A DNA stretch of 58,080 bases, counting the filler, from Bdellovibrionales bacterium RIFOXYD12_FULL_39_22 (GTDB lineage Bacteria; Bdellovibrionota; Bacteriovoracia; Bacteriovoracales; Bacteriovoracaceae): NCBI GenBank assembly GCA_001770205.1. It is 2 parts of 2 records of this genome, joined end to end, with 100 filler letters (N's around TTAATTAATTAA, not from the genome) between each part and the next. Parts side by side here need not be neighbours in the genome. Positions count along the whole stretch, not along the records: positions 29,831 to 58,080 come from MEQL01000045.1; 1 more part is not named here. One strand, given 5' to 3'. The number at the start of each line of letters is the position of its first letter. Positions within the stretch are counted from its first letter, which is position 1. Made by a program: the position numbers and the translations under genes. Below the pieces are notes generated by a model that was given only the letters and a program-made list of their open reading frames with translations, ran no database searches and was not told the origin of the DNA. Below, in pieces: positions 6,030 through 47,688 of this stretch.

Positions 6030-6081
6030 TGGCCACTCTCAAAGCTATAAGACAGACTCTCCAACTGCATAACTACTAGCA

Positions 6082-7638: not shown

Positions 7639-8384
7639 TTGACATCACCTCTTTGATTGTTGGTAAACATTCTAGACTTATTCCAGGCCCGCGAAGAATG
7701 CATTCCCCCCTTATTGATCAGCGTTTTTACCAATGAATCAACATTGGGAGTAGAAACAAATCCTCTACACGCTTCACAAGGGATTCCATCTTTCGGACAA
7801 GGAGCTCCACATCCCGCACGTGCGACCACTCCAAGGCAATGATCACCATCATGAAAACGACAAATGGTTTCATTTAATTTACATTCCATACAAACAGGAT
7901 GATTGGGGATAATTGGTTGTTTATCATGTAAAAGGTGCGAGACAATGCGAATAAATTCATCACGACTCATGGGACATCCATACACCGAATAATCAACTTT
8001 TATTGCTGCAGAAATTGGTAGGGCAATATTGGATGCCAAATGCGGTGCCTTTGCATCTTTGCCATAAACACACTCATGGTAATCATGCTGGTGATTCTTT
8101 AGCGCATTGATTCCACCAGTGGCCGCACATGCTCCATAAGCAATAACGATCGCCGATCGCTTACGTATCTCCTCCAATCGCTTCCGATCACTCTCGCGTG
8201 TGAAACTGCCTTCTATGAAAGCAATATCTAACTTGCCTGCCTTTTCACTCATCGCTTCACGAAATTCCACAATATCAATGTGATTTATTAATTCTAAAAA
8301 TGCAACATCGCCAAAGTTAGTGAGTTCAATCTGGCACCCTTCACAGCTGGCAAAGTCAAAAAATCCGACCTTGGGTTTACTCAT
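7635..8384 (-). CDS. hyhS: Group 3b hydrogenase small (delta) subunit
   Basis: SCEGC, GACA, GCP, CMEC, CLG...GCGAPCP...CEACRG. Confidence 0.92.
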   Translation of the reverse strand: MSKPKVGFFDFASCEGCQIELTNFGDVAFLELINHIDIVEFREAMSEKAGKLDIAFIEGSFTRESDRKRLEEIRKRSAIVIAYGACAATGGINALKNHQHDYHECVYGKDAKAPHLASNIALPISAAIKVDYSVYGCPMSRDEFIRIVSHLLHDKQPIIPNHPVCMECKLNETICRFHDGDHCLGVVARAGCGAPCPKDGIPCEACRGFVSTPNVDSLVKTLINKGGMHSSRAWNKSRMFTNNQRGDVK

Positions 8385-9217
8385 ATTGCCTCCTCAAGAT
8401 GCTTGATAGTGTCTAGGGAAAAAACTGGCCCATGTATACAAGCGTAATGATCATTAATTTGACAATGGCCACACTTACCTACCCCACACTTCATTCTGCG
8501 CTCTAAATCCAAATAAATATCTTCGTTTTTAATTTTTAGTTTTTGCAATTCGAAAATAACAAACTTAAACATAACTGGAGGGCCACAAATTATAACTTTT
8601 GTATTACTCTCCACTTCTAAATTTTTAAACAAAGTAGTGATTAGGCCCACATTACCTTTCCAGCCAGGAATTCCTTGATCTACCGTCTCATGAAAATCAA
8701 CATCACTACTCTTGGCCCAGACCTCTAAATCATCAACAAACATGCGCTGATTAGGATTTTTGGAACCATATAACAGAGTAAATTTTTTAAAATCCGATCG
8801 CTTATCCAAAATATATTGAATCATACTGCGAGTAGGACAAAGGCCGATACCTCCAGCGACAATCATGACGTTTTGATTTTTAAAGGCCTTGAGATCAAAA
8901 CCATGGCCCAAAGGCCCGCGCACATAAAGAGAATCTCCTTTTTGCAATTTATTAATCGCTTTAGAAACTCTTCCCACACTACGAACAACAATATCAAAGC
9001 TATTTTTTCGCGTTGGAGAACTGGCAAAACCAATGGGAATCTCTCCGTACCCAAATAGAGAAACTTCCATTATCTGTCCAGGAGAAAAAGTCATCTGCTT
9101 ATCATTAGCGAGCTTCAAAGAAAAATGTCGTTCTAGCTCAGTGACTTGTTTGACATTTAAAATTTTGGCTTCCATTGGGTAAAAAATGTTATTTTCGTAA
9201 GAATTATAATCTAACAT
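8381..9217 (-). CDS. hyhG: Group 3b hydrogenase gamma subunit (FAD/NAD(P)-binding, 2Fe-2S)
   Basis: RGPLGHGF, VAGGIG, ICGPP, ERRMKCGVGKCGHC...C. Confidence 0.92.
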   Translation of the reverse strand: MLDYNSYENNIFYPMEAKILNVKQVTELERHFSLKLANDKQMTFSPGQIMEVSLFGYGEIPIGFASSPTRKNSFDIVVRSVGRVSKAINKLQKGDSLYVRGPLGHGFDLKAFKNQNVMIVAGGIGLCPTRSMIQYILDKRSDFKKFTLLYGSKNPNQRMFVDDLEVWAKSSDVDFHETVDQGIPGWKGNVGLITTLFKNLEVESNTKVIICGPPVMFKFVIFELQKLKIKNEDIYLDLERRMKCGVGKCGHCQINDHYACIHGPVFSLDTIKHLEEAI

Positions 9218-9232
9218 AATATAGCTCCTATC

Positions 9233-10270
9233 CTATAGCTCCATTATTCTATTGATGGCCTTGGCCGGGTCTGCGATATCTGCAGTACAGGCCGAAGAAC
9301 AACGTCCGCAGCCAACACAGGCCGGTCCTCCCAACGTTTCATTTAAATAAGTACTCTTGCGCATAATACGGTGACGAAAACGCTGGGCCTTTGACTCTCT
9401 GAAATTTTCCTCATGCCCTCCGCCCAAAGAAATTTTAGCAAAATCTTCCGTCATACAAGCATCCCAGGTTCGTTCACGTCGACCCGAAACTTGATCAACA
9501 TTCCAATTATCTTGAACATCAAAACAGTAACAAGTTGGACAAACAGTATTACAAGATCCACAAGAGAAACAGTCATCGGCCAACTCTTCCCATAATTGCT
9601 TTTCTTTGAAAGTACTACGTACTTTCGTGGCAATTTCTTTAGAAGAGTGATTTAACTTTTCTGGGCATTGCTTAAGCACTCTTTCGTTAATGTCCATACT
9701 CGCCGCAATTTGCGCTGGAGAGGCGTTGGAAAAATCACCAGACTTTAAAAGCGCACTACCTTTATCGGTATAACATTCATAAACATACCCTTCTCCACCA
9801 TCTAGTTTGATAATAAACCCATCGTACCCATGCGGTCGAACATCTTTTCCAACACTCCCCCAAAAAGCACGCTTACTTATTTTCTGAATATTTGCTCCGA
9901 TAATAGTCGTTGCTGCACGATTGGCCAAATAGTTTGCATCGCTATTATTTGCAGCAAAAAGATTATCCAACATATCAATGGCCTTAAGATCATAAAAGTG
10001 CACCCCTAGTAAAATTTTATCCTCCGGTGCAATCAACGAATTATGCCCTTGTTTGTCAAACGTTAACAATCCCTGTCGCGGTGGAAATATATATTTCTTA
10101 GGTGGTAGAATTGTCACATCATAATCCAAGCGCAGATCATCGAAAGAGGTTAATTCATCAAAAATAAAACTTTGCTTCTTAGAGACTGGAGCATAGATCT
10201 TTTTCTTTGCCTGAATTAATTTGACGATAAATTTTTCAAAGTTTGCTCTAGTGATAAAATAGGAGGACAT
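9233..10270 (-). CDS. hyhB: Group 3b hydrogenase beta subunit (4Fe-4S, AsrA-like)
   Basis: CFSCGSCNTVCPTCYC and CVGCGRCSSAC. Confidence 0.92.
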   Translation of the reverse strand: MSSYFITRANFEKFIVKLIQAKKKIYAPVSKKQSFIFDELTSFDDLRLDYDVTILPPKKYIFPPRQGLLTFDKQGHNSLIAPEDKILLGVHFYDLKAIDMLDNLFAANNSDANYLANRAATTIIGANIQKISKRAFWGSVGKDVRPHGYDGFIIKLDGGEGYVYECYTDKGSALLKSGDFSNASPAQIAASMDINERVLKQCPEKLNHSSKEIATKVRSTFKEKQLWEELADDCFSCGSCNTVCPTCYCFDVQDNWNVDQVSGRRERTWDACMTEDFAKISLGGGHEENFRESKAQRFRHRIMRKSTYLNETLGGPACVGCGRCSSACTADIADPAKAINRIMEL

Positions 10271-14331: not shown

Positions 14332-15882
14332 TTACATTTTGAGCGTCTTGAATTCCTTTCCATCGTGAACAAAATAGGCCTCGCGGCCTTCAGAGATCGT
14401 CACCAAATTAATAGGCCTTTTCCAGATAAAGAATATATTTTTCATGGTTTCGCTGGCCATTTGCAAGTCCAACTCAACGCCATTGTGTTTGTGTCGAAGA
14501 AGCAATTCTCCGCGATTGGCAAAATTTGCTTTTTCAATTTCAATTACCGGTGTCCCATAATTGGTCAGCTGTGATAGCAATTTTGCCTTGATTACTTCAA
14601 AATCCCGACTAGTTATTTCGTTTCTGCCAGTATTTGGATTGAAGGTATAAGTAAAAATCTTTTGTCGCTCACAAAAATCTTTGGTGAAAAACTCATCAAT
14701 AAAGGTGATATCATTATGACTTTTTCTAACTTCGAAAATCTTCTCTCGCCCTAAACCCAACTTCTTATCCCACTCTTCGAGCATTCTCATATCGGTACAA
14801 TCATTATATTCTTTGCCAAAACGGCCACTGTTCCATCTATATTCGATATCACGAAATAACTCCAGGCCGATTTTGTAAGGATTTAACTGTTTGCGACTCA
14901 TGGCCATAACTCCGGCATGGTGATCTGCGAAATCTACAATTTCGCTAGAGCGCAAGGCCTTTTGAGTCATTATCGTAGAGTGCCAATAGCTGGCCCAGCC
15001 TTCATTCATAATTTTAGTTAGACGCTGCGGCAAATAGTAATAGGCCTCTTCCCGCAAAATACCAATAATATCGGCCTGCCACTCTTCAATCGGAGCGTTC
15101 TCTAAAAGAAATAGCATTATATCCCGATAATTCTTTTCAATTTTTTCACTGATTTTAGGAGGTGCTTCGTCTTCTTTTGGTTTACTGGCATCCTTTTTAC
15201 GTCGATCATCACGATCTTTGCTGCTCATAAAAGATTTCAATGCACTGCTCATACCCTCATCTTGTCGCTCTCCTTCTAAATCTTTTTCTTTATCACCATT
15301 TTTATTATTCCTATTACCCTTTTTCCCGAGACCTCTTTCAAATAAAATATTTACATCCAATAAATTTTCCAACGATAAAACACGATCAATAAATTCCTCG
15401 ACCTTATCTTGCCCATATCGATCAGAGTAGCGGCGAATCTTTGTTCCATGATTGGCCATAACATCCATCATATTGCGATCAGAGCTAGCAAACCAATAGT
15501 TATTCTTAAAAAAATCAGCATGGCCATAGACATGTGCCATAACAATTTTTTGATCAACAATATTATTTACATTTAAAAGATAGGCATAACAGGGATTAGT
15601 GTTTACCACCATCTCATAGATTTTTTGCAACCCGTAAGCATATCCTTTGTAAAGCTGATCATACTCCATTCCAAAACGCCAATGAGGATATCGGTTTGGA
15701 AAGCCTCCATGGGCGGCCAAGACATTTATGGTCTCATAATCACAGACTTCAAAAATAACATCGTAAAAATCTAGGCCATAATCGAGCGCATACTTGAGAA
15801 TTTCTTCTTTTAATCTTAACAACTCTCCGCTTATAGGTTTTGTACTTTCCAAAAAAAACTCCTGATTATTTTCCCTTTCCAA
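14332..15882 (-). CDS. spoVR: SpoVR family protein
   Basis: [41 protein letters not shown]. Confidence 0.95.
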
Positions 15883-16972
15883 GGAATTCTTTAATCGAGT
15901 TCAATATCGCACTCTTATTCTCAATTTTGCTCAATATTACCTTGTCCGCTTCTGTTCCATATTTCTTCATCAAATCATTATAAAACTGGCCAGAACCGTA
16001 GCGACTCTCCACTTGCCCGTAACAGAACATATTGGCCGCCGGGATTAAGTCATTGTCTAAAATATCCAAACACTCTTTTGTATCATCTGTTGACCAATTA
16101 TCTCCATCGGAAAACTGGAAAGGATATATGTTCCACTCTTTTGGATTATAATCTGCCTTAATTATGTCTCGACATAATTTATAAGCGGAAGAAATTAAAG
16201 TTCCACCGCTTTCTCGTGTTTTAAAAAAAGTTTCCTCGTCAACTTCCTTGGCCGTCGCATCATGAATGATATAACGAATCTCAATATCCTTGTATTGATG
16301 CTTTAACCAAAGATTGATCCAGAAACTCTCCGTCCGAACGATCTCTTTTTGCTCATCACCCATAGAACCTGAAACATCCATGATATAGATCACCACTGCA
16401 GCATTCTCATACTGCACAGTGCTTTTGGCCGAACGAAAACGAAAATCTCCGCGCACTGGAACAATCACTGGATTTTCTGGGTTATAGGTGCCAACAGCAA
16501 TTTGTCTTTTTAAGGCCTCTTTATATGAACGTTTAAAATGTTTTAATGAATCTGGCCCCACCAACCCAATGCTGGTATAGCGATCAGTTTGCGATTGAAT
16601 TGTTTTTTTGCCTTTGGGTTCTATATTAGGCAAGGCCAACTCTTCGCCTAAAATACTGGCCAGTTCTTCTATAGAAACTTCGACTTCAACTTCCTTTTTT
16701 CCCTCGCCTTCTCCCGCTTCTCCTTCTCCTGGTTGTGGTTCGCCATCCACCGGATCGCCTTGATTCCCTTCTCCCTGGCCTGTTCCACCACCTTGATTAT
16801 CACCAAAGCGAAAACGTGGTGTTTCAATTGACGGCATAGGTATCTTTACCGTGCCATCGCCTTTGGGCGTGGGCATTTCTCCCCGCGAAATGTATTGCCG
16901 AAGATTGGTACGAATTCTACCTTTGACAATTTTTCTGAATCTCGCATGATCTCTTTTAATCGAATGTCCCAT
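15866..16972 (-). CDS. yeaH: DUF444 (YeaH/YhbH) vWA-like protein
   Basis: [23 protein letters not shown]; lies between prkA and spoVR. Confidence 0.93.
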
Positions 16973-17011
16973 ACTACATTTCCCCCGAGGAAAGTCTAAT
17001 ACTCATATAAC

Positions 17012-19069
17012 CTACTGGGACTTGGCCGAATCACCTTTCGCAAAAATTGAGGCAACAAAATTAAGCGCATCTGTCGCACAAATTTCACAATAGCCATGAT
17101 TTTTTATCAGCCGCGATTTAACTACTTCAATTTTTTCCTGGGTATCTTTGTCTACCACTTTAGCTATGATATTTGTCAGTTTAATTGAATCCTTCTGATC
17201 TTCAAAAAGTTTCAACTCTAGCGCTCTGTGTAGTCGCTCATTCATTTTAAAATCAAAAGTTTTTCCTTCAATGGCCAATGCACCAATGTAGTTCATAATT
17301 TCTCTTCTAAAATCATCTTTGCGCGACTCAGGAATATCAATTTTTTCCTCTATAGAACGCATAAATCGCTCATCAGCATCTTCCAGTTTATTAGAAAACC
17401 TGTTTCTAATTTTTTCCTTTTGAGTATACGCTTTAACGTTATCAATATAGTTGGCACACAAAGTTTGAATGGCCGTTTCATCTACACTGATGGCCTTTTG
17501 CACATCGTTTTTAACGGTGTCTTCGTACTCTTGACGTGCCACCGACAACATCTCTCGATAGTGTTCCTGCATCTCTTGAGAATTAATTAGCGCATGATGT
17601 TTTAATCCGCTCTCCAATTCATTAAACACCATAAAAGGATTTAAACATCCGGTATGGCCATTTTTAACCAAAGAGTTGGATAGCTTATCTTGAATATAAC
17701 GCGGAGAAATCCCCTCTAGTCCTTCGCGCATGGCCTCTTTGCGCAATTCTTTTACGTTATCCTCATTGTACCCCGGTAATGTTTTACCATTATATAACTT
17801 GAGCTTTTGTAATTTTGTTAGATCTGATTTTTTTGGTTCCTCTAATCTGGTTAGAATGGCCCATAAGGCCGCCATCTCTATAGTATGCGGAGCAATGTGA
17901 ATATGAGGAATTTTATCTGGGTTAAAATCTTTGTGATAGATTTTGATTTCGTTATCCAAACGCGTAATATATGGAATGTCTATTTTTACAGTCCTATCCC
18001 GCAAGGCCTCCATAAACTCATTGCTTTGCAGTTTTCTAAATTCTGGCTCATTAGTATGGCCAATGATCACTTCATCAATATCTGTCTGCGAAAATTTCTT
18101 GGGCTTAATACACTGCTCTTGGGATGCTCCTAAAAGGTCATACAAAAAAGCAACATCTAGTTTGAGCATCTCAATGAACTCAACTAATCCACGATTGGCG
18201 ATATTAAACTCCCCATCAAAGTTGAAAGCGCGCGGATCTGAATCTGATCCATATAGTGCAATCTTTCGATAATTAATATCCCCAGTAAGTTCCGTGGAAT
18301 CTTGATTCTTTTCATCCTTGGGCTGGAAAGTTCCAATACCAATTCGATCCTTTTCTGAAAGCACCAACCTCTTGACCCGAATATGGTCGGCCAATTTAGT
18401 CCAGTTACCATCATATTTTTTCATATACTGATTATAAATATAGCGACAGGCCGGACAAATATCACCTTTGATGGATACTTTTCGCTCCTTACTTCCTCTA
18501 TTGAGTTCCGTAAGAAATTGCGGACGTAGTGTGGTCGGAATTAATCTGATTGGTTCTTCGTGCATGGGACAAGGAAAGGTAGATTCTCCACCCAAAATTT
18601 CTGTTTTCTCATTATCAAACCACTCATACGTATAGAGTGCTCCGGCATCCGTACGCGAATAATGCTCCAATCCTTTTTTTAACAACCTGGCGATAGATGA
18701 TTTAGCTGAACCGACTGGGCCATGCAGCAGCAATACACGTTTTTCTGTTCCATACCCTGAAGCTGCGGCCTTAAAAAAATTGACCAACTTCATTAAATGC
18801 ACATCAATACCAAAAACTGCATCCGCACCATTGTCAAACGGATCATCAAAGAAATTGTAACGAACCACTTCTTTTTTGTATTCGTTATAAGTGCGCGAAC
18901 CATAAGAAGTGATCATATCGTATATTCGCTGAAAGGCATTTCTGGTTACTTTGGGATTATTCCCAACTGTGTTCAGATAATCCTGAAAAGTCCCCTCCCA
19001 ATGAAGATAGGCAAAGTCTGAGACTTTAAAATTATTTTTGATAAAATCTTTAATATCGATGTGGCCCAT
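17012..19069 (-). CDS. prkA: PrkA/YeaG family AAA+ serine protein kinase
   Basis: [41 protein letters not shown]. Confidence 0.95.
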
Positions 19070-29904: not shown

Positions 29905-30125
29905 GTTGGTTTAACATTTTAAAATTGTATGAGAGTGTACAAAATACAACAGCGTAAAAAAAAATAGTCGTTTTTCCAGTTTTTATCTAAAAAATACCCA
30001 CCTTCGGCAGCTATTTCAGCTTAGAGCACAAAAAGCATTCGAACTCTCTGCCATCCAAACAAGATTTGAAAAGTTTTGTGACATTCAAAAAAAAATAGTT
30101 ATAATGGTTTGAATAGCTTGATAAG

Positions 30126-30215
30126 TGGTGCCTGAGGCGAGACTTGAACTCGCACGGTCTTTTTAAAACCGAGGGATTTTAAGTCCCTTGTGTCTACCGA
30201 TTCCACCACCCAGGC
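30126..30215 (-). tRNA. tRNA-Leu(TAA)
   Basis: GCCTGGG acceptor start, anticodon loop CT-TAA-AA, long variable arm, GTTCAAGTC, CCA. Confidence 0.95.
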
Positions 30216-30271
30216 GCTGTTTAGGAATGAGAGATATGTTGAACTATTCACGGGCCAATTGTCAACACAAA

Positions 30272-32017
30272 ATGAGGCAAAGTCTCAGAATATATTCTTT
30301 GGCCTGGCCCATCTTTGTAGTTGGAGTAGTTGGAAATTTATTACTTTTTTTTGCATGCAGCACTACTGGCCAAGAAAAAGATTCGGCCTCCGAGGATAAG
30401 CTTTTGGCCACTGAGATGCCGGAGCCTTTTTGGCTAAAAGTAGATGAACGTTTTTCTTTTACTGATAGAGATGGAAATTATTTGTATCATCCCTTTTTTG
30501 ATAATGGCCCGTTTGTGAAAATGCAAGAGGCCAGTGACTCTGAAAAAATTTTTGCGGAACCAGCTGAGGCGGAAGAGGCCGAACAGGTAATTAACGAAGG
30601 GCAAGAGCTAAGTGAGACGGTTGATGTTGATGAGTTAGGAGTAGGGGGGGAAGGGGCGACAGAGGCAGATAGCAGTTCTGCGCCAGATCCGGCGATGGAG
30701 GTGGCACAGCAAAGTATTACCGAGCAGTTGGAGATTACCCCTGTTGACGGAAAACTAATTTTGAATTTTTTTGTAACAACTCCCGCCGATAGTGCATATC
30801 TTTACGATTTTGATCTAGTTTCGGGAAAATTATTTACCAAGTTTAAATATTGTGAACAAAAAGATATTTGGAAAAACTACAAAAGCACTATCGAGCGACC
30901 GATGTTTACCAGCGGAATCGTTCCTCGCATTTTAGACCAATTAGGTCATCCGCAGCAAATTATTGTATTTGGCAATGATGATTTTTTTAAAAAAACTTTT
31001 GATGAGAATAGTGATTTACCCATGCGACAGGCCAAAATTGTGGGCGGAGTGGTTGAGCAGTATTGCGAAGTTTATCCCTGTTCAAGCAGCGGAGAGTGGT
31101 TATCTAGACAGATAATGGTGGCGGTGAGTGTTGATGATCAAGAGTTTTTTGAAGTGGATAATTTGGAGCAACTAAAGCGAAAAGTAGATTGGCCAGAGGT
31201 CTTGGCATTTTTGCAAAATGGCCAAGGACGGGCCATATTAAATAGTGTTAGTTATGTAGGGGCCCGAGAAGAACGACGAGAAGAAGAGAATCCGGCCTTT
31301 CGCTACATTGGGGAAATATCTGTTGAAAACGTTATTACTTACGCCAATAAAGTTGGCCATATTTTTGGCCTTTCAGAATTGCAAGCACTGAGATCGAGTT
31401 GTCATAAACTTTATGATTTTTTATGGAGTATTGCAGATAAGGCAAAGTTAAAAAAATTGCAAAAGATGAACATCGATAATGCCTCTCTTTTTGCGGCCAA
31501 CTTTGGTAGCTTTTATAGTAAATATGGCAAGGAATTGGCCATCTGTTCAAAATATGTGCGGGCCGCGAATATAAATCAAAGTATTGAGCGACACTGGTTT
31601 TTTGCTTTTCTTTCTGGATTTATAAAGCTTACTCAGCAAGGCAATATCTATTTTTGTAATCAACGGGTTTGGACAGAGAATATTATCGACAATAATGGGA
31701 AGTTACAATTTAATCCAGCGGAAAATTATAAAAGTTGTACGGATACTGATATGGAGTTTGGATTTAATATGATGAGTAGTTATCTAGAACAACAACAAAA
31801 GGCCGGGCGTACTCATCTTCGTTATATAACCTACGATAGTGGAATTGGGCGCACCCATAATAAACTCTATTCCTGGGCCCAAATGAGTGGAAAGCGACTT
31901 AGTTGTACAGATAAAAAGGAGCAAGAAGTGGCGGATCTTCCCTACGAAATATTTCCAAAAGATGTTCGGTGGACAAAGTTGGATAGTTCGGCGACACGAG
32001 ATGATTTGATTTATTAA
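30272..32017 (+). CDS. Hypothetical lipoprotein with an acidic insertion and several Cys
   Basis: Lipobox-like LLFFAC; the track start at 30188 overlaps the tRNA, so ATG 30272 is preferred. Confidence 0.75.
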   Translation: MRQSLRIYSLAWPIFVVGVVGNLLLFFACSTTGQEKDSASEDKLLATEMPEPFWLKVDERFSFTDRDGNYLYHPFFDNGPFVKMQEASDSEKIFAEPAEAEEAEQVINEGQELSETVDVDELGVGGEGATEADSSSAPDPAMEVAQQSITEQLEITPVDGKLILNFFVTTPADSAYLYDFDLVSGKLFTKFKYCEQKDIWKNYKSTIERPMFTSGIVPRILDQLGHPQQIIVFGNDDFFKKTFDENSDLPMRQAKIVGGVVEQYCEVYPCSSSGEWLSRQIMVAVSVDDQEFFEVDNLEQLKRKVDWPEVLAFLQNGQGRAILNSVSYVGAREERREEENPAFRYIGEISVENVITYANKVGHIFGLSELQALRSSCHKLYDFLWSIADKAKLKKLQKMNIDNASLFAANFGSFYSKYGKELAICSKYVRAANINQSIERHWFFAFLSGFIKLTQQGNIYFCNQRVWTENIIDNNGKLQFNPAENYKSCTDTDMEFGFNMMSSYLEQQQKAGRTHLRYITYDSGIGRTHNKLYSWAQMSGKRLSCTDKKEQEVADLPYEIFPKDVRWTKLDSSATRDDLIY

Positions 32018-32085: not shown

Positions 32086-32586
32086 ATGATTTCCAAACAT
32101 TATATAAGGGATGATACTTTAGCGGAACGTTTTGCAAAATTGTATCAACCGAATTTAATTAAAGGTAAGTTTTTGGAATGGCTTTACGCTAGTGGACTTA
32201 ATCCTTTGGTGATTGGAGAGAGTTGCTGTGTGCAGGAATTTTCTTCGTTATTAGATATGGAGAGTTTGGATTTTTTACTAGATAGTGGTGGAGTGTCAAG
32301 TAGGATGGAGTTAGCGGATGTTTTAGTAGTGGCAGGGCCTATTACGGTAAAATTTGCGGACAGATTTAAAGAAATTTTTGATTCCATGTCACGGCCATTT
32401 TGGGTGATAGCAATTGGTGCTTGTGCCTCGTCTGGAGGAATTTTTCGTTCAGAAAAAGTTATTCAAGGGATAAGTGCTATTGCTCCTGTAGATATTTATA
32501 TTCCTGGGTGTCCACCTACTCGTGAAAGTATCATTGATGGATTTTATAAATTACGGGAGCGTATAACTAAAAGGGAGCGGCCTTGA
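32086..32586 (+). CDS. nuoB: NuoB-like Fe-S subunit (divergent)
   Basis: SCC tandem Cys, ADVLVVAG, GACASSGG, VDIYIPGCPP. Confidence 0.85.
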   Translation: MISKHYIRDDTLAERFAKLYQPNLIKGKFLEWLYASGLNPLVIGESCCVQEFSSLLDMESLDFLLDSGGVSSRMELADVLVVAGPITVKFADRFKEIFDSMSRPFWVIAIGACASSGGIFRSEKVIQGISAIAPVDIYIPGCPPTRESIIDGFYKLRERITKRERP

Positions 32587-34199
32587 GTTTAGAAAAAAAA
32601 TTATTAGATTATTTTTCCGATCGATTAATCGCAGGAGTAGCTAGTTTTGAAATAACCTTAAGCGATGTTGTTTATGTTGAAGAGTTACAATTTTTACGCG
32701 AGGAATGTAATTGTCTTATATTGAAAGATCTTTGTGCAGTAAAAAGTAGTTCTGATTTATCCAGGCCTTCTGTGTCAAGCGGAGTGCCGGCCATCGTTTA
32801 TATTTTATATAGCTTTGAGATGAGTACCACAATTTCCGCCAAATTATTGCTGAAGGATGAATCACAGGCGTTCTTTTTAAAGTCAGTTAATCGGATATGG
32901 CCAAATGCCAGTTGGTATGAGCAAGAAATTATTAACTATTTTCGCTTGGAAAGTAAGAGTGCAACCAATCAAAAAATATCTCTTGCGGAGAAAGAAGGAG
33001 AGATGGAAATTTCTCCATTAATTAGTAAGTATGAAGGCCGCCGCCATAAGTGGATACCTATGGGCCCAAATAATAGCGGTAATTTGGGAAATTTTAAAGT
33101 TGATTTTTTATTGGATGCTGAAAAAGTAATTGATGTAAAAATTGAAACGGGCATGGCGCACCGAGGGATAGAAGAGTTATGTGAAACTTTACGCTATGGC
33201 CAGATCGTCGCGTTAATGGAACGTCTTGATTGTAACTCCCCCTATCCTCCGGCCATTGGTTGGTGTCGTTCGGTGGAGAGTATGATGCAATTGACAATTC
33301 CGCAAAGAGCACAGGCCTTGCGAATGATTTTTTTGGAGCTAGCTCGCGTGGCCGATCATCTTTTTTTCTTTTCTATATTTTTGGATAATTTGGCGATTGT
33401 TGATGCCAAGAAATTTTTTCTAAATTTACGTGCGCAAGTAGTAGGGCTCTATCGTAGCTATGGAGAAGGTCTGGTGTTATCTTCTTCGGTGGTAATTGGC
33501 GGAATGGCGCGTAATTTACCAACTGGATGGATTTCAGAATGTTTCAATATGATTAAAAACGTAGCGGAGGGAATCAATCGCTTTGATAAAAAAATCGTTT
33601 CTTCGCGAATATTTAGAGAGCGAACAAAAATTTGTGAGATCAGTGGTGCTCAGGCCATATCCTGGGGGTATTCAGGCCCAAATCTGCGAGCAAGTGGTGT
33701 CAACTATGATTTGCGCAAAGTATCTCCGTACTATTTTTATAAAGATGTTGATTTTGAGATTCCGCTGGGTATTTATGGTGATTGTTATGATCGCTATTTG
33801 GTGCGAGTAGAAGAGGTTAGGCAAGCTTTGCGCATCATTGGACAAATTATTGACTACATTCCTACAGGAGCGTTTTTACTTGAAGATACGCAAGTTATGT
33901 TGTCCGATAAAAGTAAAATTAAAACAAGCTTTACTCACCTTATCGATTTCACCTCTTTGGGATTAGGTGGAGTGAAAGTTCCTCCTTCAGAAATTTATCA
34001 GAGCGTAGAGACCAGCGCTGGTGAGTTAGGATTTTTTATTGTTGCGGAAGGAACAGAGCGGCCTGCTCGCGTTAAGATTCGTTCCGCCTCCTACGCTCAC
34101 CTACAATCTTATCGTTACATCGCGCAAGGTTTTGACTTAAGTGGCGCGTTAACTATTTTAGCGTCTTTAAATATTAGTGCTAACGAAATGGATAGATAA
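32583..34199 (+). CDS. nuoCD: Fused NuoC/D-like subunit (divergent)
   Basis: WPNASWYEQE (C part); HRGIE, ELARVADH, GPNLRASGV.YDLRK, GDCYDRY, GELG, C-terminal EMDR. Confidence 0.85.
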   Translation: MSLEKKLLDYFSDRLIAGVASFEITLSDVVYVEELQFLREECNCLILKDLCAVKSSSDLSRPSVSSGVPAIVYILYSFEMSTTISAKLLLKDESQAFFLKSVNRIWPNASWYEQEIINYFRLESKSATNQKISLAEKEGEMEISPLISKYEGRRHKWIPMGPNNSGNLGNFKVDFLLDAEKVIDVKIETGMAHRGIEELCETLRYGQIVALMERLDCNSPYPPAIGWCRSVESMMQLTIPQRAQALRMIFLELARVADHLFFFSIFLDNLAIVDAKKFFLNLRAQVVGLYRSYGEGLVLSSSVVIGGMARNLPTGWISECFNMIKNVAEGINRFDKKIVSSRIFRERTKICEISGAQAISWGYSGPNLRASGVNYDLRKVSPYYFYKDVDFEIPLGIYGDCYDRYLVRVEEVRQALRIIGQIIDYIPTGAFLLEDTQVMLSDKSKIKTSFTHLIDFTSLGLGGVKVPPSEIYQSVETSAGELGFFIVAEGTERPARVKIRSASYAHLQSYRYIAQGFDLSGALTILASLNISANEMDR

Positions 34200-35680
34200 T
34201 GGAAAAGGATAAAGGGAGTGAAATAGTTATTGAGTTGGATGGACTCATGATAAAGTGTTCGGAAGGAGAAAATCTTGCGGAAGTTTTGCAAGGTGCTCAG
34301 ATTCCCATAATTCGTCTCTGTTGCGAAGAATCCACTAACAATCGTGGCCATTGTAATCTTTGTCTGGCGGAAAATTGCGTTACCGGAGAAATCTTTCGCA
34401 CCTGCGAAGTGACGATAAACTCGGAAATGCATCTTTCGGTAAATTCTAAACAAGTGCAGATTGCCATTAAAGAATCCATGGCAAAATTGTTGTCTGGCCA
34501 TCCGGCACTTTGCAATGAGTGTATTAAGTTAGGGGAGTGTCAATTGCAGGAAAGCTTTCGCAAGTTACCATTTGAATTAGCGCAGAAAATTACTATTTTT
34601 GCAAGCAAGGAGTCTAAAGGCCAGATTGTGGATCTGGGAAAAAATATTGTCTTTGATGAAAAATTTTGCATTGCTTGCGGACGTTGTGTGGCGTTTTTGG
34701 CCAATTTTACAAAGAGCAATGAAATTAGGCCACCAGTTGAAAATGAAGATGAATGGCGTCGTCCTTTGCCTTCACCTTTAAAAAATGAGTATGTATTAAA
34801 TTTGCCAGAGCTTTGTCCAACTGCCGCGTTATCAGAAGTTACAAATAGTCGCCCTTCTCCTCTTCCTTTGCCTTATTCTCACACCACTATTTGCATTGGT
34901 TGCCCTGCTACTTGTCCGGCCACCTTAGAGTTTGATAATTGGGGGCCAGTCCGTCTACGTCCGATTCCATCCTCGATGAAAAAAAGTCGCTGGATGTGTG
35001 ATTTTGGGAGAAAAATTGTTGGTGGATACAAATATACCCAGCGGTTACATGAAATTGTTGAAAATTATAACGGATCTTTTTCAGTAACGGAGGTCGGCCC
35101 TTTAATTGAAAGAATACGCAGAAGAGATTTGAAACTAGTTTTACCGCTGGATTTGTTCAACGAGGAGTATGAATTTTTCTTCAAGATGGCAAAAAAGTAT
35201 TCTTTTAAAATATCTTTTTTTAAATGGCCCAATAGTGGAGCAGATTTTGATGGGATTTTAAAACGTGGAAGTCATAATTGTAATGAAAAAGGAATGGAGG
35301 CGGTTTGGAAACGTTTTCGTGATTTTGGGTTAGTCTTAGCGGAAGAGCAATTTTTTGAAGGCCTAAGTAAGACAGATGTTGTTTTGATGGTATTGCCGGA
35401 GATTATTAGCGATTCCAACTTCCTTTTTGATTATGTTGGGCGACTGGGGCGAGCAGATTTTAAGGTGGCCTTTTCAGTTACTGATTCGTTGCATGTTCAG
35501 AAAGAATTTAATTATCTTTTTCCGGCCAGTGCTTTTTTTGAAAAAAATGGCACAGTGACAAATGTTTATGGAGAGGATTCTGTTTTGCGTTTTGCAAACT
35601 GGCCATTTGAAAAACAATTTTTTAAAGAGCGAGGGGAGAGTTTGATTACCAGGCATCTCTCCTCTATATTGGGAACCTAG
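34199..35680 (+). CDS. nuoG: Shortened NuoG-like Fe-S protein
   Basis: GHCNLC, HPALCNEC..GECQLQ, CIACGRC...CPTAAL, CIGCPATC...C; weak C-terminal PASAFFEKNGT. Confidence 0.8.
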   Translation: MEKDKGSEIVIELDGLMIKCSEGENLAEVLQGAQIPIIRLCCEESTNNRGHCNLCLAENCVTGEIFRTCEVTINSEMHLSVNSKQVQIAIKESMAKLLSGHPALCNECIKLGECQLQESFRKLPFELAQKITIFASKESKGQIVDLGKNIVFDEKFCIACGRCVAFLANFTKSNEIRPPVENEDEWRRPLPSPLKNEYVLNLPELCPTAALSEVTNSRPSPLPLPYSHTTICIGCPATCPATLEFDNWGPVRLRPIPSSMKKSRWMCDFGRKIVGGYKYTQRLHEIVENYNGSFSVTEVGPLIERIRRRDLKLVLPLDLFNEEYEFFFKMAKKYSFKISFFKWPNSGADFDGILKRGSHNCNEKGMEAVWKRFRDFGLVLAEEQFFEGLSKTDVVLMVLPEIISDSNFLFDYVGRLGRADFKVAFSVTDSLHVQKEFNYLFPASAFFEKNGTVTNVYGEDSVLRFANWPFEKQFFKERGESLITRHLSSILGT

Positions 35681-35685
35681 ATTTT

Positions 35686-36159
35686 ATGATTTTGAAAAAA
35701 AAATTATATAGAAAAGTTGGAATGTTTGCAGAGATTTTTTTATCTTCTGTGCAGAGAGGGATGGCCTTTGTTTCGTTTTCTTTGAAGAGGACTAAGCATG
35801 ATCAAACTAAAACACAAAAAATAGATGAGAAAAAAATAGATGCTTGGCCAATGTTAATTAAGAAGGAAGATGAAAATGGCCAGGAGTCACTGCTGTGTAA
35901 CGGTTGTATGCTTTGTCAGATAAATTGTCCTTCTTCGGCCATACACATTATACCCTATGATGGAAATATTTTGGCATCTCCTCCTCAAACGCGGCAAGCA
36001 CTTAGTTTTGAATTAGAAGTCTTAAGATGCGTAAATTGTCGGCAATGCGTAGAGATATGTCCGATAAATGCTATTAAGTTTACCACGCACGATTATTTTT
36101 CTGCGGGAGATATGTCTAAGGAGTGGATGCTAGATCATTATAAGCTAATTGGTGAGTAA
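35686..36159 (+). CDS. nuoI: NuoI-like 2x[4Fe-4S] protein
   Basis: CNGCMLCQINCP and CVNCRQCVEICP. Confidence 0.8.
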   Translation: MILKKKLYRKVGMFAEIFLSSVQRGMAFVSFSLKRTKHDQTKTQKIDEKKIDAWPMLIKKEDENGQESLLCNGCMLCQINCPSSAIHIIPYDGNILASPPQTRQALSFELEVLRCVNCRQCVEICPINAIKFTTHDYFSAGDMSKEWMLDHYKLIGE

Positions 36160-36370
36160 CTGACACCAGTTTGGCAAATTTGGTTTCAAAGTGACACTGA
36201 ATTTCTAATAAAAAATCTTATCCTGTCAAAAATCTTTACAGCAATTTTGTAGGTGTGTAATGTTTTCTTGCTTGTGGTGAAAAACACCTACTGAAGATCA
36301 TTTGTATGATATAAACGGGGTGATTGGCACCGGCCAGCATTCAACAGTTTTTTTGCCATTAGGAGACTTT

Positions 36371-39300
36371 ATGATTACCAAAACTAAATTTTTTCTTCTC
36401 GGGTCCTTAGTATTTCTGCTCTCCTCAAATCTATTTGCGAGATTTGATGTACGCCACGATAGTTGGCAGCGAGAGTTTATTGGAACGCCAACCTTTAGGT
36501 TAAGCGATGATCCGGAGCTCATGAATAAAGAGCGTGCAGTGGCAGAACATCAGGAAAGATTAAGAAGAGCGCAAGCAGAACTTAGCACTTTACAACAAGA
36601 AGTGGAGCGAATTCGTGAAAATCTGGAACAGCATCGCACAACACTACAGACAGTAGTGGCAAAAGAGGCAGAATTGGCCGGACAAAAAAACCAGCTACAA
36701 CAGAGTATTCAGGCCGCCCATCAACGTGTGACGGCCTTGGCCGCCACTATCGAAGAGCAAAAGCAGGCATTAGCAACTGCAACTGCCGCTATCGCAGAGG
36801 CGCAGCAACAAGTGGCCACCGCAGAACAAAGTGTAAAACAATCAGAAAATCAGTTAGAAAAAGTTAAGGCCGAGTTGGCGGCCGCAATGGCCGAGTGTCA
36901 AGCAACTGCAACTCAAAATTGCGCGCAAACAGAAAAAGTTAAAAAAGCACAGGCGAGAGTCGATAATGTGACTACCAAAATTGCTAACCAAAAAAGTTTG
37001 CTCAAGTTGGCACAAGATAATCTTGTAAAAAAGGAAAATCAAAAAAACAAGGCCGAAGAGTTGTTAAAGAGAACGCAAGTAGAAAGACAAACTTTGATTG
37101 CTAGCGTTCCAGCGATGAAAGCACAAATTGACGCCATAGAGGCACAAAGAGAGCAAAATCGCCAAAAACAAGCACAAGTGGAACAAAAGATTGCAACTAT
37201 TCAAAGTAATTTACAAAATAAGCGGCGAGAAATGGAGGCCGCGCAAAATTTGCAATCAAGAGCACAGTTTGCTTTGGATAATGCCATCAACCAAAAAGAG
37301 GTTTATCAAGATGAACTCATTCAACGAATTTTGGAAGTTAACCATCTAGGTGCCAATCATGGTGCTCAATCCGGCGATTACGACGGATACGAGATATCTC
37401 GAATTGAAGGCGAGCGTTATGGTAATCAAGATGGATTAAGAGACGGAGAAGATGATGGCCGAACACGCGATTATCGTGCAGGTTATCAGGAAGGTTTAAA
37501 AATAGGAAAGGAGCGAGCACGTGTACAGGGTGAAATTGATGGTACTCGAGAAGGTAAGATCCGTGGAAATCAAGAGGCCGCAAGCAGAGAAGGCGCGGTG
37601 GCCGGAACTATTCGAGCTAAAAATTCTGATGCTTCTTTGGTGGGGGATAAGCAGGGCGCAGTTGCTGGATTAAAACGCGCAGAGGTAACTGGTGAGCGAG
37701 TAGGAACACCGCAAGGTGAGAAGAAGGCCATTGATCAGTACGAAGCAGTTCCTCTTGCCAATAAAGAGATTCAAGGTGATTTTGCCGGACTATTTTCTCG
37801 CAATGTTCCAAATTATCCCGGCCCATCATATCGTTCATATAACACCAATGAAGCAAATCGCTACCCACGAAGAGTGGTGCAGTTGGCGTATGTAAACGGA
37901 TACGACTTTGCTTATATCGATAGATCTAGTTCAATTTTTTATAATACAATCGCCAACAACTACAACGGGCGATATGATGTGGCGTATAACGATACTTATG
38001 CTCGTTATTACAAAGACAGCAATGATGCGGGAACAAAGGCCGGAGATTTAGAGGCCTACAATACCAATTATCCAACATATAAAAGTCAATATTTTGAAAG
38101 TGCCAGACTATACTATGAGATGAATCCTGAGCGCAGCAGCAGTGAGTATATGTCAACGTACAAGACTGTTGAGCAGAACTCTTTTGCTGCAGAGTATGAG
38201 CGAATTAGACTTGAAAGCTACAAGGCATCAGAACAAGCAACCTTTAATAGTAACATTGCGGCGCAAACAGAAAAATTCAGCGCCAAACGATTTGCGGAAG
38301 TTGAATCTATTTACAAAAATTTTCCAGTGCTAAAATTTGTTTCACGCTCCTTGATTGATTCTGGAATTAGTGGCGTGGCCGGAAAAGATGGAGTCTTCCA
38401 GCCAGGAGAGAGTATAATAAGTGATATTACAGTTATTAACTATGGCCAGAAAATTGCGGCCGGATTGGCGCTAGATGTAGATGGCAGTCAAATAACCATT
38501 AATGGCGTAGAAGGTAATTCTATGACCACCGTTAAAGGTGCCCTAAAGTCAAGCTTGTCGGCCAGTGCCCCAATTGGTTCAACGATCAAGACTGAAATGA
38601 TTTTAAAGTATAGTTTGAAGTCTAATGATAAAAAAATTGAAGGCCGTTATTTTGTTTCGGCAGAAGGCCTGCTAGGAACGGATTCAAAACAGCTACGAGT
38701 GGCCTATCCGCTAGCTATGACTGGTTTAACAACCAAGGGACAATTAATTTTTGAAGAGAAGAATGGATTAAAATTACGAGTGGTGAATAATTCTTCTCGT
38801 AGTTATGTTGGACCCATTACCGTTACAGTTGAGGCCGATAGTGTAGATAATATTATTACTAAGGATTTTTCGGCCATTGCACAATTGGACAAGGCCGTTG
38901 ATTTGGCCGATGCAGAGGTTATTGTTTCTAATGATCGCGATCTTTATCGACCACTAACTTTCCGTGCCAAATTATCGCAAGCTGGCGTGACACTTGGAGT
39001 TTTAGATGCTCCTCTTACTACCATGGTGAAGGCGCAATATATTGAGCGCGGCGATGCGCCAGTATTAGTGGTAAACTCAGATATTACCACTCGAGATCTT
39101 TTGGACATAGTTGCTGAACTGGGAGGCCCTGCTTCCGTATCAGTTCTAGATACTTCATTAGAAAGCAGAAATGCCCAGTATTTGAATAATGGTTTTACCA
39201 ATAAGGCCATAATGGTTTTAGATGACGGAAATCGTTCGGTTATTTCTAAAGTGGGTAACATTGTAGAAAAATCAGTCTCCTCTTCACTAGTTGCTATTAC

Positions 39301-40039
39301 CCGCACAGAAAATGGCCTAGCACTAATGGAGCAATTACCAGGACTAGTTGACGCGAGCAGGTTGTTGTTGGCCATCCCAGGAATCGGCGATAAAATTCGC
39401 TTGGATAGTACTAACCCACACCGAGTACCACGTCTTAAGGCCCCGATGATTATTTTACAAGCGACAATGGATGACTGGGAGAAGAAGTTGGCGGTAAGCA
39501 AGATTATGAAAGTTAGTGCTACTGCTCACCTGAATATGATTCGTGAGAAGATAACCAGACAAAACTTTTTCAATGCAGATGTCGAAGAAGCTCAACTGTT
39601 ACAACTTTTCAATATTAGAATGTTGGCCGAAATAATGATTTTAAACATAGCTCATGACAAATCTAAAGGCGGCCTATTTAATATGGGGAAAGATCCAAAA
39701 TGGGTCAAGATTATGGAGAACGATAGCAATATGTCGCTTCATAAGTTGCGCGCAGTGGTTCAAGGTGAAAGATTAAATGAGCAGAATTTGGCAATTAGTT
39801 TACTAGCAAAAAACAGTGTCTTCACTTTACATAATGCTTTTAATCTCTATGAACCTTTGAAAAAAGAGATAACTTCCGGTATGGCCGGCGCGATAGAGAA
39901 GATTCGTCGAGATATGGATGGTTCTGCGGAAGAAAAGTTAAAAAACTATGATCGCGGAATGCTTGATTTAATCAAAAGAAAGCTGGCAATCTATACTCCC
40001 TTTGTTCCGGGAGTAGAAGCACCAAGCTACGATCAATAG
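36371..40039 (+). CDS. Large secreted protein: coiled coil, GxxxG repeats, Tyr-rich helix and beta-rich C-terminal domains
   Basis: SD AGGAG before ATG 36371; signal peptide; long Q/A/E/K heptads; G at every 4th residue (GDYDGYEI, GNQDGLRDGEDDG). Confidence 0.85.
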   Translation: MITKTKFFLLGSLVFLLSSNLFARFDVRHDSWQREFIGTPTFRLSDDPELMNKERAVAEHQERLRRAQAELSTLQQEVERIRENLEQHRTTLQTVVAKEAELAGQKNQLQQSIQAAHQRVTALAATIEEQKQALATATAAIAEAQQQVATAEQSVKQSENQLEKVKAELAAAMAECQATATQNCAQTEKVKKAQARVDNVTTKIANQKSLLKLAQDNLVKKENQKNKAEELLKRTQVERQTLIASVPAMKAQIDAIEAQREQNRQKQAQVEQKIATIQSNLQNKRREMEAAQNLQSRAQFALDNAINQKEVYQDELIQRILEVNHLGANHGAQSGDYDGYEISRIEGERYGNQDGLRDGEDDGRTRDYRAGYQEGLKIGKERARVQGEIDGTREGKIRGNQEAASREGAVAGTIRAKNSDASLVGDKQGAVAGLKRAEVTGERVGTPQGEKKAIDQYEAVPLANKEIQGDFAGLFSRNVPNYPGPSYRSYNTNEANRYPRRVVQLAYVNGYDFAYIDRSSSIFYNTIANNYNGRYDVAYNDTYARYYKDSNDAGTKAGDLEAYNTNYPTYKSQYFESARLYYEMNPERSSSEYMSTYKTVEQNSFAAEYERIRLESYKASEQATFNSNIAAQTEKFSAKRFAEVESIYKNFPVLKFVSRSLIDSGISGVAGKDGVFQPGESIISDITVINYGQKIAAGLALDVDGSQITINGVEGNSMTTVKGALKSSLSASAPIGSTIKTEMILKYSLKSNDKKIEGRYFVSAEGLLGTDSKQLRVAYPLAMTGLTTKGQLIFEEKNGLKLRVVNNSSRSYVGPITVTVEADSVDNIITKDFSAIAQLDKAVDLADAEVIVSNDRDLYRPLTFRAKLSQAGVTLGVLDAPLTTMVKAQYIERGDAPVLVVNSDITTRDLLDIVAELGGPASVSVLDTSLESRNAQYLNNGFTNKAIMVLDDGNRSVISKVGNIVEKSVSSSLVAITRTENGLALMEQLPGLVDASRLLLAIPGIGDKIRLDSTNPHRVPRLKAPMIILQATMDDWEKKLAVSKIMKVSATAHLNMIREKITRQNFFNADVEEAQLLQLFNIRMLAEIMILNIAHDKSKGGLFNMGKDPKWVKIMENDSNMSLHKLRAVVQGERLNEQNLAISLLAKNSVFTLHNAFNLYEPLKKEITSGMAGAIEKIRRDMDGSAEEKLKNYDRGMLDLIKRKLAIYTPFVPGVEAPSYDQ

Positions 40040-46436: not shown

Positions 46437-47688
46437 TCAATCTTTATCAACTAATCTTAACACTCGCTGATCACTATTTGCCTTTGCCTTTTCCACTCCC
46501 CTATCACTTTTTTCTTCTAAATTTCGCATGTACAAATTCACCTCATTGACTGCTTTCTTGTTAGTATCCGTCGGCATCGAAGCGTAGTGCTGGGCCATTT
46601 TAATATCTTTATGGCCTGTCACCGCTTGCGCTGCATCTAGACTACCTGTAACTCTCCTAGTGATCGTTCCCATCGAATGCCGCATAATATGCGTGGAACT
46701 AAATCTAGGATAGAGTCCGGCCTTTTTCAGTGCATGGTTGTATTGATACTGGATCACTCGATAAGTCAGAGGCAATCCATTTTCATGAAAGACATATCCA
46801 GATTTTGCGCTAGCAATTCTGCGACTTAGTATCTCAAACAACTTATCATTCAAAAAAATAAATCGCTCCTCGCCATTTTTAGGAACATCTTTTAGATAAT
46901 CAAACGCCTTTGATGTCCTAGCAAACACGGCCACATGCCTTACAACAATTACCCTCTCAAAAAAATCGACACTCTCAACTTGCAGGCCGGCAACCTCACC
47001 AACTCTGGCGGCCATATAAAATTGAGTCTCCGCAAAATCCCTCCAAAAAGGAGAGAGCTGCTCGAAAAACTTCAAAACCTCATCGGCTGACATCTTTGTT
47101 ATCACGCTTAACTAGCTTACGAATCACGCCGACCGTTTTATGCCGGCGAAGCACTGGATTAACAAACATCGGATCATAATTTTCTCTATACCAGTTAAGC
47201 ATCGACTTAAGACACTTCAAATCATCGTTAAAATTGTATCGCCTGCTTTTTAGTTTGATGGCATCTTTCTTGTGACTTTCAATAAATCTATCAAGCAAAT
47301 CAGCAGTAATCTCCACCATCTTAAATTCAAACAGAGGATATAAAAATCCTTCTTTGGCCAAGCGATGTAGTGCGGTAGATCGCTCAAGAGAAGGAAGGTA
47401 TAATTTTTTATATAACTCCCACACATCTTTTAAGCGATATCCAAAATCCTCTCCATTTTGCCTGACTTTTATGTTCGGTAATAATTGCGACCTGGCCTCA
47501 ACAACTTTTTCTGGTAACGATGGATGAAATACATTCTTCCAATTAATCGCGTCTTTTAACAGCAAAAACTTTTTAGAATACTCTCTACCATTGATGTATT
47601 TGGTTACCAAAAACTGCCCATTGTCCAAATCCTTCCTAATACCTTTGTAATCTGCGACCTTCTCATATCTTCTTTTATTATCACTCAT
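46437..47688 (-). pseudogene. int: Tyrosine integrase split by a frameshift near 47095
   Basis: N-part 47080-47688 and catalytic part 46437-47105 (R in ARVGE, K, HIMRH, GH, HY); removing one A in AACAAAGATG fuses the two frames. Confidence 0.85.

Follow-up and report, generated by a model that had tools for sequence, protein, structure and literature searches.

In complex I, ion pumping is coupled, by a mechanism that is still debated, to quinone chemistry at the terminus of a wire of iron-sulfur (Fe-S) clusters. According to PMC4758237, the quinone is hydrogen-bonded by H38 and Y87 of NuoD (Thermus numbering), and D139 is paired with H38. The nuo operon of Bdellovibrio has been described as split (PMC4758237), and in all the Bdellovibrionota studied in PMC13147790, a nuoAHJKLMN cluster is located at the same site, with a second nuo cluster reported in predatory members of the phylum; two nuo clusters of Peredibacter are also on record. 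Here, we describe a four-gene nuo-like module from a 58,080-nucleotide stretch of DNA (hereinafter, the window) that consists of two joined parts of the genome of Bdellovibrionales bacterium RIFOXYD12_FULL_39_22 (GCA_001770205.1), the module being located in the part derived from MEQL01000045.1. The encoded proteins retain every ligand of the Fe-S wire and have lost the residues that form the quinone site.

Complexes that depart from the canonical arrangement have been described in other lineages. The complex I of Campylobacter jejuni, which lacks NuoE and NuoF, uses flavodoxin as the electron donor (PMC4453560). Fpo lacks H38 and D139, and in the NuoD proteins of Sulfolobus, Nautiliales and Desulfurobacteriales, H38 is absent and both Y87 and D139 are replaced (PMC4758237).

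The module in the window consists of the following genes (aa, amino acids):

32086..32586, plus strand: nuoB-like gene, 166 aa; Pfam Oxidored_q6 (1.6e-21); NuoB/PSST/NdhK chains in PDB (best 1.8e-27)
32583..34199, plus strand: fused nuoCD-like gene, 538 aa; Pfam Complex1_49kDa (9e-71) and Complex1_30kDa (2e-9)
34199..35680, plus strand: short nuoG-like gene, 493 aa; Pfam Fer2_4, Fer4_Nqo3 and NADH-G_4Fe-4S_3; 75-kDa/NuoG chains in PDB (best 3.5e-16)
35686..36159, plus strand: nuoI-like gene, 157 aa; Pfam Fer4 families; NuoI/TYKY chains in PDB (1.8e-9 to 1e-4)

All four reading frames are intact and translationally coupled, in agreement with a first-pass annotation of this DNA that had noted their tight coupling: nuoB and nuoCD overlap by 4 bases, nuoCD and nuoG overlap by 1 base, and nuoG is separated from nuoI by 5 bases. 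The nuoCD-like gene starts with a TTG codon that overlaps the nuoB stop and is preceded by an AAGGGAG ribosome-binding site. The most similar PDB chains of the CD protein are the 49-kDa/NuoD subunits of complex I (best 2.6e-66), followed at a distance by those of MBS (6e-43), MBH (3e-20) and HycE (1e-19), so that, by overall sequence, this large subunit clearly belongs to the complex I type. It exceeds the Pfam domain cut-off by a wide margin (238.5 vs 24), and the NuoB-like protein passes the cut-off of the NCBIfam NuoB subfamily NF005012 (120.4 bits vs 116).

As the same annotation had claimed, the Cys and His ligands of the clusters are conserved in NuoB, NuoI and NuoG, and we found all 28 of them (4, 8 and 16, respectively). 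The NuoB ligands of the terminal [4Fe-4S] cluster are C47, C48, C113 and C142; NuoI contains two full CxxCxxCxxxCP motifs (C71/74/77/81 and C115/118/121/125); and in NuoG, 15 cysteines and one histidine make up one [2Fe-2S] and three [4Fe-4S] sites, namely, C41/52/55/69, H101/C105/108/114, C157/160/163/206 and C232/235/239/267. We take these sites, in NuoB, NuoI and NuoG, to be N2, N6a/b, and N1b, N5, N4 and N7, respectively. Judging by these motifs, the four proteins jointly display the features of a Q-module plus NuoG, with every ligand for a chain of seven clusters that leads from NuoG via NuoI and ends at NuoB, beside NuoD.

The picture at the end of that chain is quite different. When the CD protein was aligned with 47 reference rows (the Thermus NuoD number equals the window CD residue minus 130), the following replacements were observed:

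33063..33089, plus strand: GPNNSGNLG, beta1-beta2 loop, residues 161-169; H34 replaced by N164 and H38 by L168
33222..33233, plus strand: RLDC, residues 214-217; Y87 replaced by C217, R84 retained
33387..33389, plus strand: codon of residue 269; D139, which pairs with H38, replaced by N269

Among the reference rows, H34 and Y87 are invariant (47/47 each), H38 is a histidine in 44 and D139 an aspartate in 46. The conversion of GPxHPxxHG to GPNNSGNLG and of RLDY to RLDC, proposed previously from the unaligned sequence, was thus borne out, and the replacement of D139 by Asn is an additional lost quinone-site residue that had not been listed. The two CxxC motifs of NiFe large subunits (RxCGxC and DPCxxC) likewise were not found in the CD protein, as had been stated: the N-terminal part has RLDCNS in place of the first motif, and the C-terminus has NISANEMDR in place of the second. 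The new cysteine, C217, does not coincide with a NiFe ligand position, the first and third of these ligands being at positions 86 and 403 (PMC4758237). With the Fe-S wire intact, the quinone-site residues gone and the NiFe cysteines absent, the earlier assessment that the module represents neither a standard complex I nor a hydrogenase is supported. Two further candidates were dropped. H169 (Thermus) was rejected as an extra lost residue because the 47 reference rows contain T in 39 cases and H in only 5, and C217 as a purposely acquired ligand was set aside because Cys occurs at column 87, among many other residues, in 5 of the 88 other representatives with an eroded site that are discussed below.

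No genes for nuoE, nuoF, nuoH or nuoJ through nuoN were detected in the 58-kb window by Pfam searches of open reading frames (ORFs; at least 100 aa, except for shorter ones overlapping them) or by tblastn with E, F, H and J-N references at 1e-6, and nuoA was not detected there by Pfam, the sole search made for this gene given that there was no tblastn reference. The previously noted absence of membrane-arm and nuoE/F genes next to the module thus extends to the entire 58 kb. A soluble partner gene linked to the module was not found in the window either.

To place this gene order in context, we scanned genomes with an alignment of NuoCD relatives, which yielded 80 loci (the genome of the window not being among them), and mapped the nuo genes in the 15 Bdellovibrionota-like ones; the counts below are based on tblastn because ORF calls proved unreliable in GC-rich loci. 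Thirteen of these loci (L002-L012, L033 and L044) are of the Bdellovibrio type, with the order CD-E-F-G-I, preceded by B in 9 of the 13; CD is fused, G is 488-538 aa long, and 2 of the 13 end at contig ends. In the flanks of all 13, tblastn did not find H, J, K, L, M or N. The remaining two loci are of a different kind. In Halobacteriovorax marinus (L001), B-CD is followed by a 129-aa two-cluster ferredoxin, and tblastn found no E, F or G, nor any membrane genes within 10 kb. In Bacteriovorax stolpii (L026), nuoH-I-J-K-L-M-N is followed directly by a second, odd B-CD-I set. We denote these two modules X-B'-CD'-I', X being an upstream gene described below. The H. marinus module retains all 12 of its ligands. 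In the one from B. stolpii (L026, 9436-11883), the genes are intact but none of the 4 NuoB' cysteines and only 5 of the 8 NuoI' cysteines remain, and this module possibly caps a complex I while lacking redox centers. Our literature searches, which covered few subscription journals, did not turn up any account of the X-B'-CD'-I' modules, the eroded family or the B-CD-G-I form.

The window combines features of both kinds of loci. Like the Bdellovibrio split complex I, from the same phylum, it has a fused CD, a NuoG in the range of approximately 490-540 aa, which aligns over its full length with those of the Bdellovibrio-type loci, a G that directly abuts I without H in between, and no membrane genes nearby; its order, B-CD-G-I, is the Bdellovibrio order minus E and F. 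The direct G-I junction is a mark of the split operon. Unlike the Bdellovibrio complex, the window lacks nuoE and nuoF, has N, L, C and N in place of H34, H38, Y87 and D139, and contains gene X upstream. With the H. marinus and B. stolpii modules, it shares a lipoprotein gene X directly upstream, the fused CD, the replacement of both H38 and D139, the absence of E and F, and the beginning of NuoI (MILKKKLY in the window, with similar I' N-termini in the other two), whereas nuoG is present only in the window. Because the absence of membrane-arm genes nearby is the normal layout in this phylum, the description of the module as soluble in the first-pass annotation, for which that absence was the sole basis, is not supported: all 13 Bdellovibrio-type loci are alike in this respect, with nuoAHJKLMN located separately (PMC13147790, PMC4758237). 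In one of these loci (L044, 9068-11923), two subunits of a 2-oxoacid:ferredoxin oxidoreductase are encoded directly after nuoI, which hints at a ferredoxin-linked input near such operons.

Gene X is the immediate upstream neighbor of the module:

30188..32017, plus strand: gene X, predicted lipoprotein, 609 aa for the full ORF

In the Atlas record, the protein begins at an internal Met, at 30236. The X protein is homologous to the product of the ORF directly upstream of nuoB' in H. marinus (L001, 7695-9212; 35% identity, 6.6e-95) and in B. stolpii (L026, 8012-9490; 29%, 4.6e-65); the protein is rich in conserved cysteines, and each of the three has, as judged by eye, a signal peptide that ends in Cys. 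No homolog was detected in the Bdellovibrio-type loci, and no Pfam or NCBIfam family matches X; an Atlas search gave a weak, sub-threshold pyrophosphatase-like match (score 0.85; TM 0.73 by hit and 0.36 by query). The best promoter-like site of the region (30078-30105) is located upstream of X, and no terminator-like site was found between X and nuoB, both results being consensus matches only from a scan whose sites did not exceed those in shuffled sequence (20 vs 17.3 and 6 vs 6.4, respectively); this is a weak hint that X and the nuo-like genes may share one transcript. That genes for a periplasmic-type lipoprotein and for a cytoplasmic Fe-S module should be linked, as they are in three distantly related genomes, is odd.

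The loss of the quinone site is not peculiar to the window. Full-length identity to the window NuoCD does not exceed 37-38% for any protein, some C-terminal fragments reaching 42-48%, in a word-indexed search of 5.8 billion clusters and an exhaustive search of 1.84 billion representatives. Among the best 150 cluster representatives, the window included, 132 span all four quinone-site columns; 43 of these are canonical-like (H38, Y87, and D or E at 139), 31 are partial, and 58, most of them 500-570 aa long, which is the size of a fused CD, have none of H38, Y87 and D139. Three proteins of this eroded family are named Halobacteriovorax at the source, the others being without an organism name. 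With the window set aside, 88 representatives have an eroded site, and the entropy of the four columns in this set is 3.2-3.75 bits, nearly every residue being represented, so that the random variation among relatives that had been named beforehand as an outcome unfavorable to the first-pass interpretation is largely what is observed, and the suggestion of a different acceptor finds no positive support. Replacements are fixed only within close groups: in the 13 rows of the Halobacteriovorax group, position 38 is K and H34 is kept throughout, and position 87 is Tyr or Phe. By contrast, conservation in the same 88 representatives reaches 85% or more at 42 further positions in the NuoD part, of which the window retains 41. 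Since there is no new conserved motif at the quinone site and the rest of the protein remains constrained, the site appears to have been abandoned rather than rebuilt; nor does plain decay of the proteins account for the retention of all 28 ligands and of 41 of the 42 family-conserved positions. The proposal of a relaxed-selection paralog accordingly holds for the quinone site, and the branches are indeed long, but it does not hold for the ligands and the conserved positions. NuoB and NuoI are also less eroded in the window than in the two relatives: of the columns that are invariant in canonical proteins, the window NuoB retains 26 of 40 (H. marinus, 22; B. stolpii, 7) and the window NuoI 20 of 26 (H. 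marinus, 13; B. stolpii, 14).

Phylogenetic analysis is compatible with descent from the split operon. In the NuoG tree (39 rows), the window pairs with P0127 (100), next to P0128 (99), and this trio falls in the starred set of 14 rows together with the Bdellovibrio-type short NuoG, apart from the 25 other NuoG. P0127, a 417-aa fragment that is 51% identical to the window NuoG and the sole close relative among 7 matches, retains the 12 ligands that it covers. For NuoCD, the approximately unbiased (AU) test did not reject a topology that unites the window CD in one clade with the 13-row Halobacteriovorax group and the CD' of B. stolpii (p 0.569), the tree constrained in this way being better by 1.99 log-likelihood units; this grouping was named from synteny, though after the tree was seen. 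The best match of the window SecA protein shows 76% identity, and the identity to proteins labeled Bacteriovoracaceae, Halobacteriovoraceae, Bacteriovorax or Bdellovibrionales is 69-72%, which assigns the organism to Bacteriovoracia, within Bdellovibrionota; the NuoD part is 37.5% identical to that of H. marinus and about 37% identical to that of Bdellovibrio, and a NuoD labeled Halobacteriovoraceae (P0014) is 58.6% identical to Bdellovibrio. Three canonical-looking, short-branch NuoCD or NuoD proteins (P0007, P0014 and P0026), one of which carries the name Halobacteriovoraceae, retain Y87 and D139 and differ at H38 alone, where they have N, Q and K; by their sequences, H38 may have been the first residue lost in this lineage.

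Taken together, these observations suggest that the module is a derived peripheral arm of the split Bdellovibrionota complex I, with nuoEF lost, a working wire, a defunct quinone site and a membrane arm encoded elsewhere; this is the reading that we favor, and we consider its being correct an even proposition. The module would be a heavily diverged copy of a nuoB-CD-E-F-G-I operon from which nuoE and nuoF were lost. The B, CD, G and I proteins would assemble as they do in the peripheral arm, with electrons still passing along the Fe-S wire. Because the flavoprotein NuoF is missing, direct donation by NADH would be excluded, and electrons would most likely enter at NuoG or NuoI from reduced ferredoxin or flavodoxin, or from a different dehydrogenase. 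At the other end, the canonical chemistry of quinone reduction, with H38, Y87 and D139, would be gone, and the old site is probably defunct rather than retuned because its positions are free to vary across the family. By analogy with the relatives, the module most likely sits on a nuoAHJKLMN membrane arm encoded elsewhere. The known forms can be arranged in a series that would lead from B-CD-E-F-G-I in Bdellovibrio through X-B-CD-G-I in the window to X-B'-CD'-I' in Halobacteriovorax and to the same module with its cluster cysteines lost in B. stolpii; judging from these comparisons, the window is an intermediate in the series, and the loss of the quinone site is secondary, within a NuoG-bearing lineage.

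Several observations weigh against this scenario. The gene-absence results for this organism cover the 58-kb window only, and no donor gene is linked to the module there. The CD protein scores below the NCBIfam cut-offs for NuoD (NF004739, 324.2 vs 360; TIGR01962, 308.8 vs 459.35), NuoI below that for NuoI (55 bits vs 113), and NuoG likewise below its cut-offs. In the NuoG tree, the stem (3.47 changes per column) and the window end branch (1.51) are long; the NuoCD tree (90 rows) is an unresolved bush in which the window lies next to P0016 on an end branch of 1.1, their join being a meeting of long branches. As the SecA and NuoD identities indicate (about 70% vs 37.5%), the module evolves much faster than housekeeping genes. 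The window NuoD retains 64 of the 92 canonical-invariant columns, which is among the lowest values in the rows shown, and residues that all other groups keep are lost (K198E, S415A, Y495A and P502A). The N-terminal TxxYP of NuoI and the stretch of NuoB behind the CC motif are altered, and these residues presumably lie near the membrane arm and the quinone cavity, so a docking surface could have been changed or lost. The loss of cluster cysteines in the B. stolpii module also has to be counted here.

An alternative is that the module is a decaying remnant. The lineage would have acquired a different NADH dehydrogenase, either a second nuo set or Nqr, and the old arm, having lost nuoEF and its quinone site, would be drifting toward loss with no function left. 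The stepwise disappearance of E and F, then G, and then the B. stolpii cysteines, together with the long branches, the loss of residues that are invariant in all other groups, the near-random quinone site and the second nuo cluster reported in predatory Bdellovibrionota (PMC13147790), would fit such a course. Nevertheless, the survival of 28 of 28 ligands on branches longer than one change per column, of 41 of 42 conserved positions, and of intact, coupled frames is hard to reconcile with decay, as are the ligands kept in the 51% identical NuoG ortholog P0127 and the size and age of the eroded family (at least 88 clusters at 50% identity, mostly full length), in which dead genes otherwise would have to persist, so that we regard this explanation as unlikely. 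A truly soluble, stand-alone Fe-S complex that shuttles electrons between cytoplasmic partners without any membrane arm would agree with the lack of membrane-arm genes in the 58 kb, and within 10 kb in H. marinus, and with the altered NuoI and NuoB segments that face the membrane arm. Such a complex appears decidedly improbable: the same neighbors are missing from 13 of 13 canonical Bdellovibrio-type operons, the membrane genes of which are elsewhere (PMC13147790), the B. stolpii module directly follows nuoH-I-J-K-L-M-N, and no linked soluble partner gene is seen.

It is also conceivable that the module still reduces a quinone, or an analog, bound through other residues. R84 and the N2 ligands are kept, and canonical residues are lacking in the Fpo and other NuoD proteins listed above (PMC4758237), but no replacement residue is conserved at the quinone-site columns, the NuoB loop after the CC motif is changed as well, and for the ancestral complexes themselves, a ferredoxin-to-NADP role rather than quinone reduction has been proposed (PMC4758237); we consider continued quinone reduction improbable. 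A bolder extension of the scenario that we favor, namely, that the eroded modules cap the phylum-wide nuoAHJKLMN arm and form a new, non-quinone class of complex I, seems to us quite unlikely. In complexes like that of the window, a wire fed by ferredoxin or flavodoxin and ending at a remodeled pocket, with C217 in place of Y87, would drive or gate ion translocation with an acceptor other than quinone, the cluster-less caps would be structural parts of a redox-independent cation/proton transporter, and X would be a periplasmic partner.

Among the more distant systems, the C. jejuni complex I resembles the window in that NuoG is kept and the NADH-binding subunits are absent (PMC4453560). In both cases, the retention of NuoG without these subunits implies a donor other than NADH. 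C. jejuni has two replacement genes for nuoEF, a single operon with all the membrane subunits and a canonical quinone site, and the window differs from it in every one of these features. The Fpo and the 11- and 10-gene Nuo complexes also combine an Fe-S chain in NuoB and NuoI with the lack of quinone-binding residues; unlike the window module, they are described as ancestral forms that have no NuoG and, in some cases, contain vestigial NiFe cysteines (positions 86 and 403), whereas the cysteine of the window is at 87 (PMC4758237). Finally, the MBS sulfane reductase and Ehr share with the window a NuoD-like subunit that has neither a NiFe nor a quinone site, and the MbsL match is that given above for MBS (6e-43), but the window protein is of the complex I NuoD type and has no linked antiporter-like genes. 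Ehr, compared here by its definition, is a complex in which NuoD- and NuoB-like subunits are clustered with NuoH- and NuoL-like membrane subunits, and no NuoH- or NuoL-like genes are adjacent to the module in the 58-kb window by Pfam or tblastn.

The module thus belongs to a natural lineage in which the Fe-S wire is fully kept but neither the NADH input nor the quinone residues remain, within a graded series that extends from a normal split enzyme to cluster-less copies. If it still sits on a membrane arm, it would reveal the part played by the arm and the wire once quinone chemistry has been removed. The 58 of 132 nearby representatives without H38, Y87 and D139 suggest that many entries annotated as 'NADH-quinone oxidoreductase subunit C/D' cannot have a canonical quinone site, and such annotations matter for metabolic predictions from metagenomes.

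Elsewhere in the window, a group 3b-like [NiFe] hydrogenase cluster of five genes (5556-10270, minus strand) encodes sulfhydrogenase-type beta, gamma, delta and alpha subunits and a HycI-like protease, all of which score below the NCBIfam equivalog cut-offs. The alpha subunit, unlike the NuoD part of the module, has intact RICGIC and DPCISC motifs, and it is extended at its N-terminus by about 85 residues with a very high content of Lys and Ala, its start overlapping the stop of the preceding gene. Genes for a PrkA kinase-like, a DUF444 (YeaH-like) and a SpoVR-like protein lie in a row at 14332-19069 (minus strand). Downstream of the module, a 1245-aa protein (36302-40039, plus strand) has a long Gln/Ala-rich coiled coil in addition to a signal peptide, matches no family beyond a weak SMC-like similarity of the coiled-coil kind, and is followed by three ORFs without a family match, up to 43034. 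The segment 46437-56204, with a split-looking integrase-family ORF (46437-47105 and 47080-47688), an ECF-type sigma factor, a Fic-domain ORF, a PemK/MazF-like toxin beside a helix-turn-helix protein, and a gene for a HigA-like antidote, probably represents an island of mobile or addiction-module origin.

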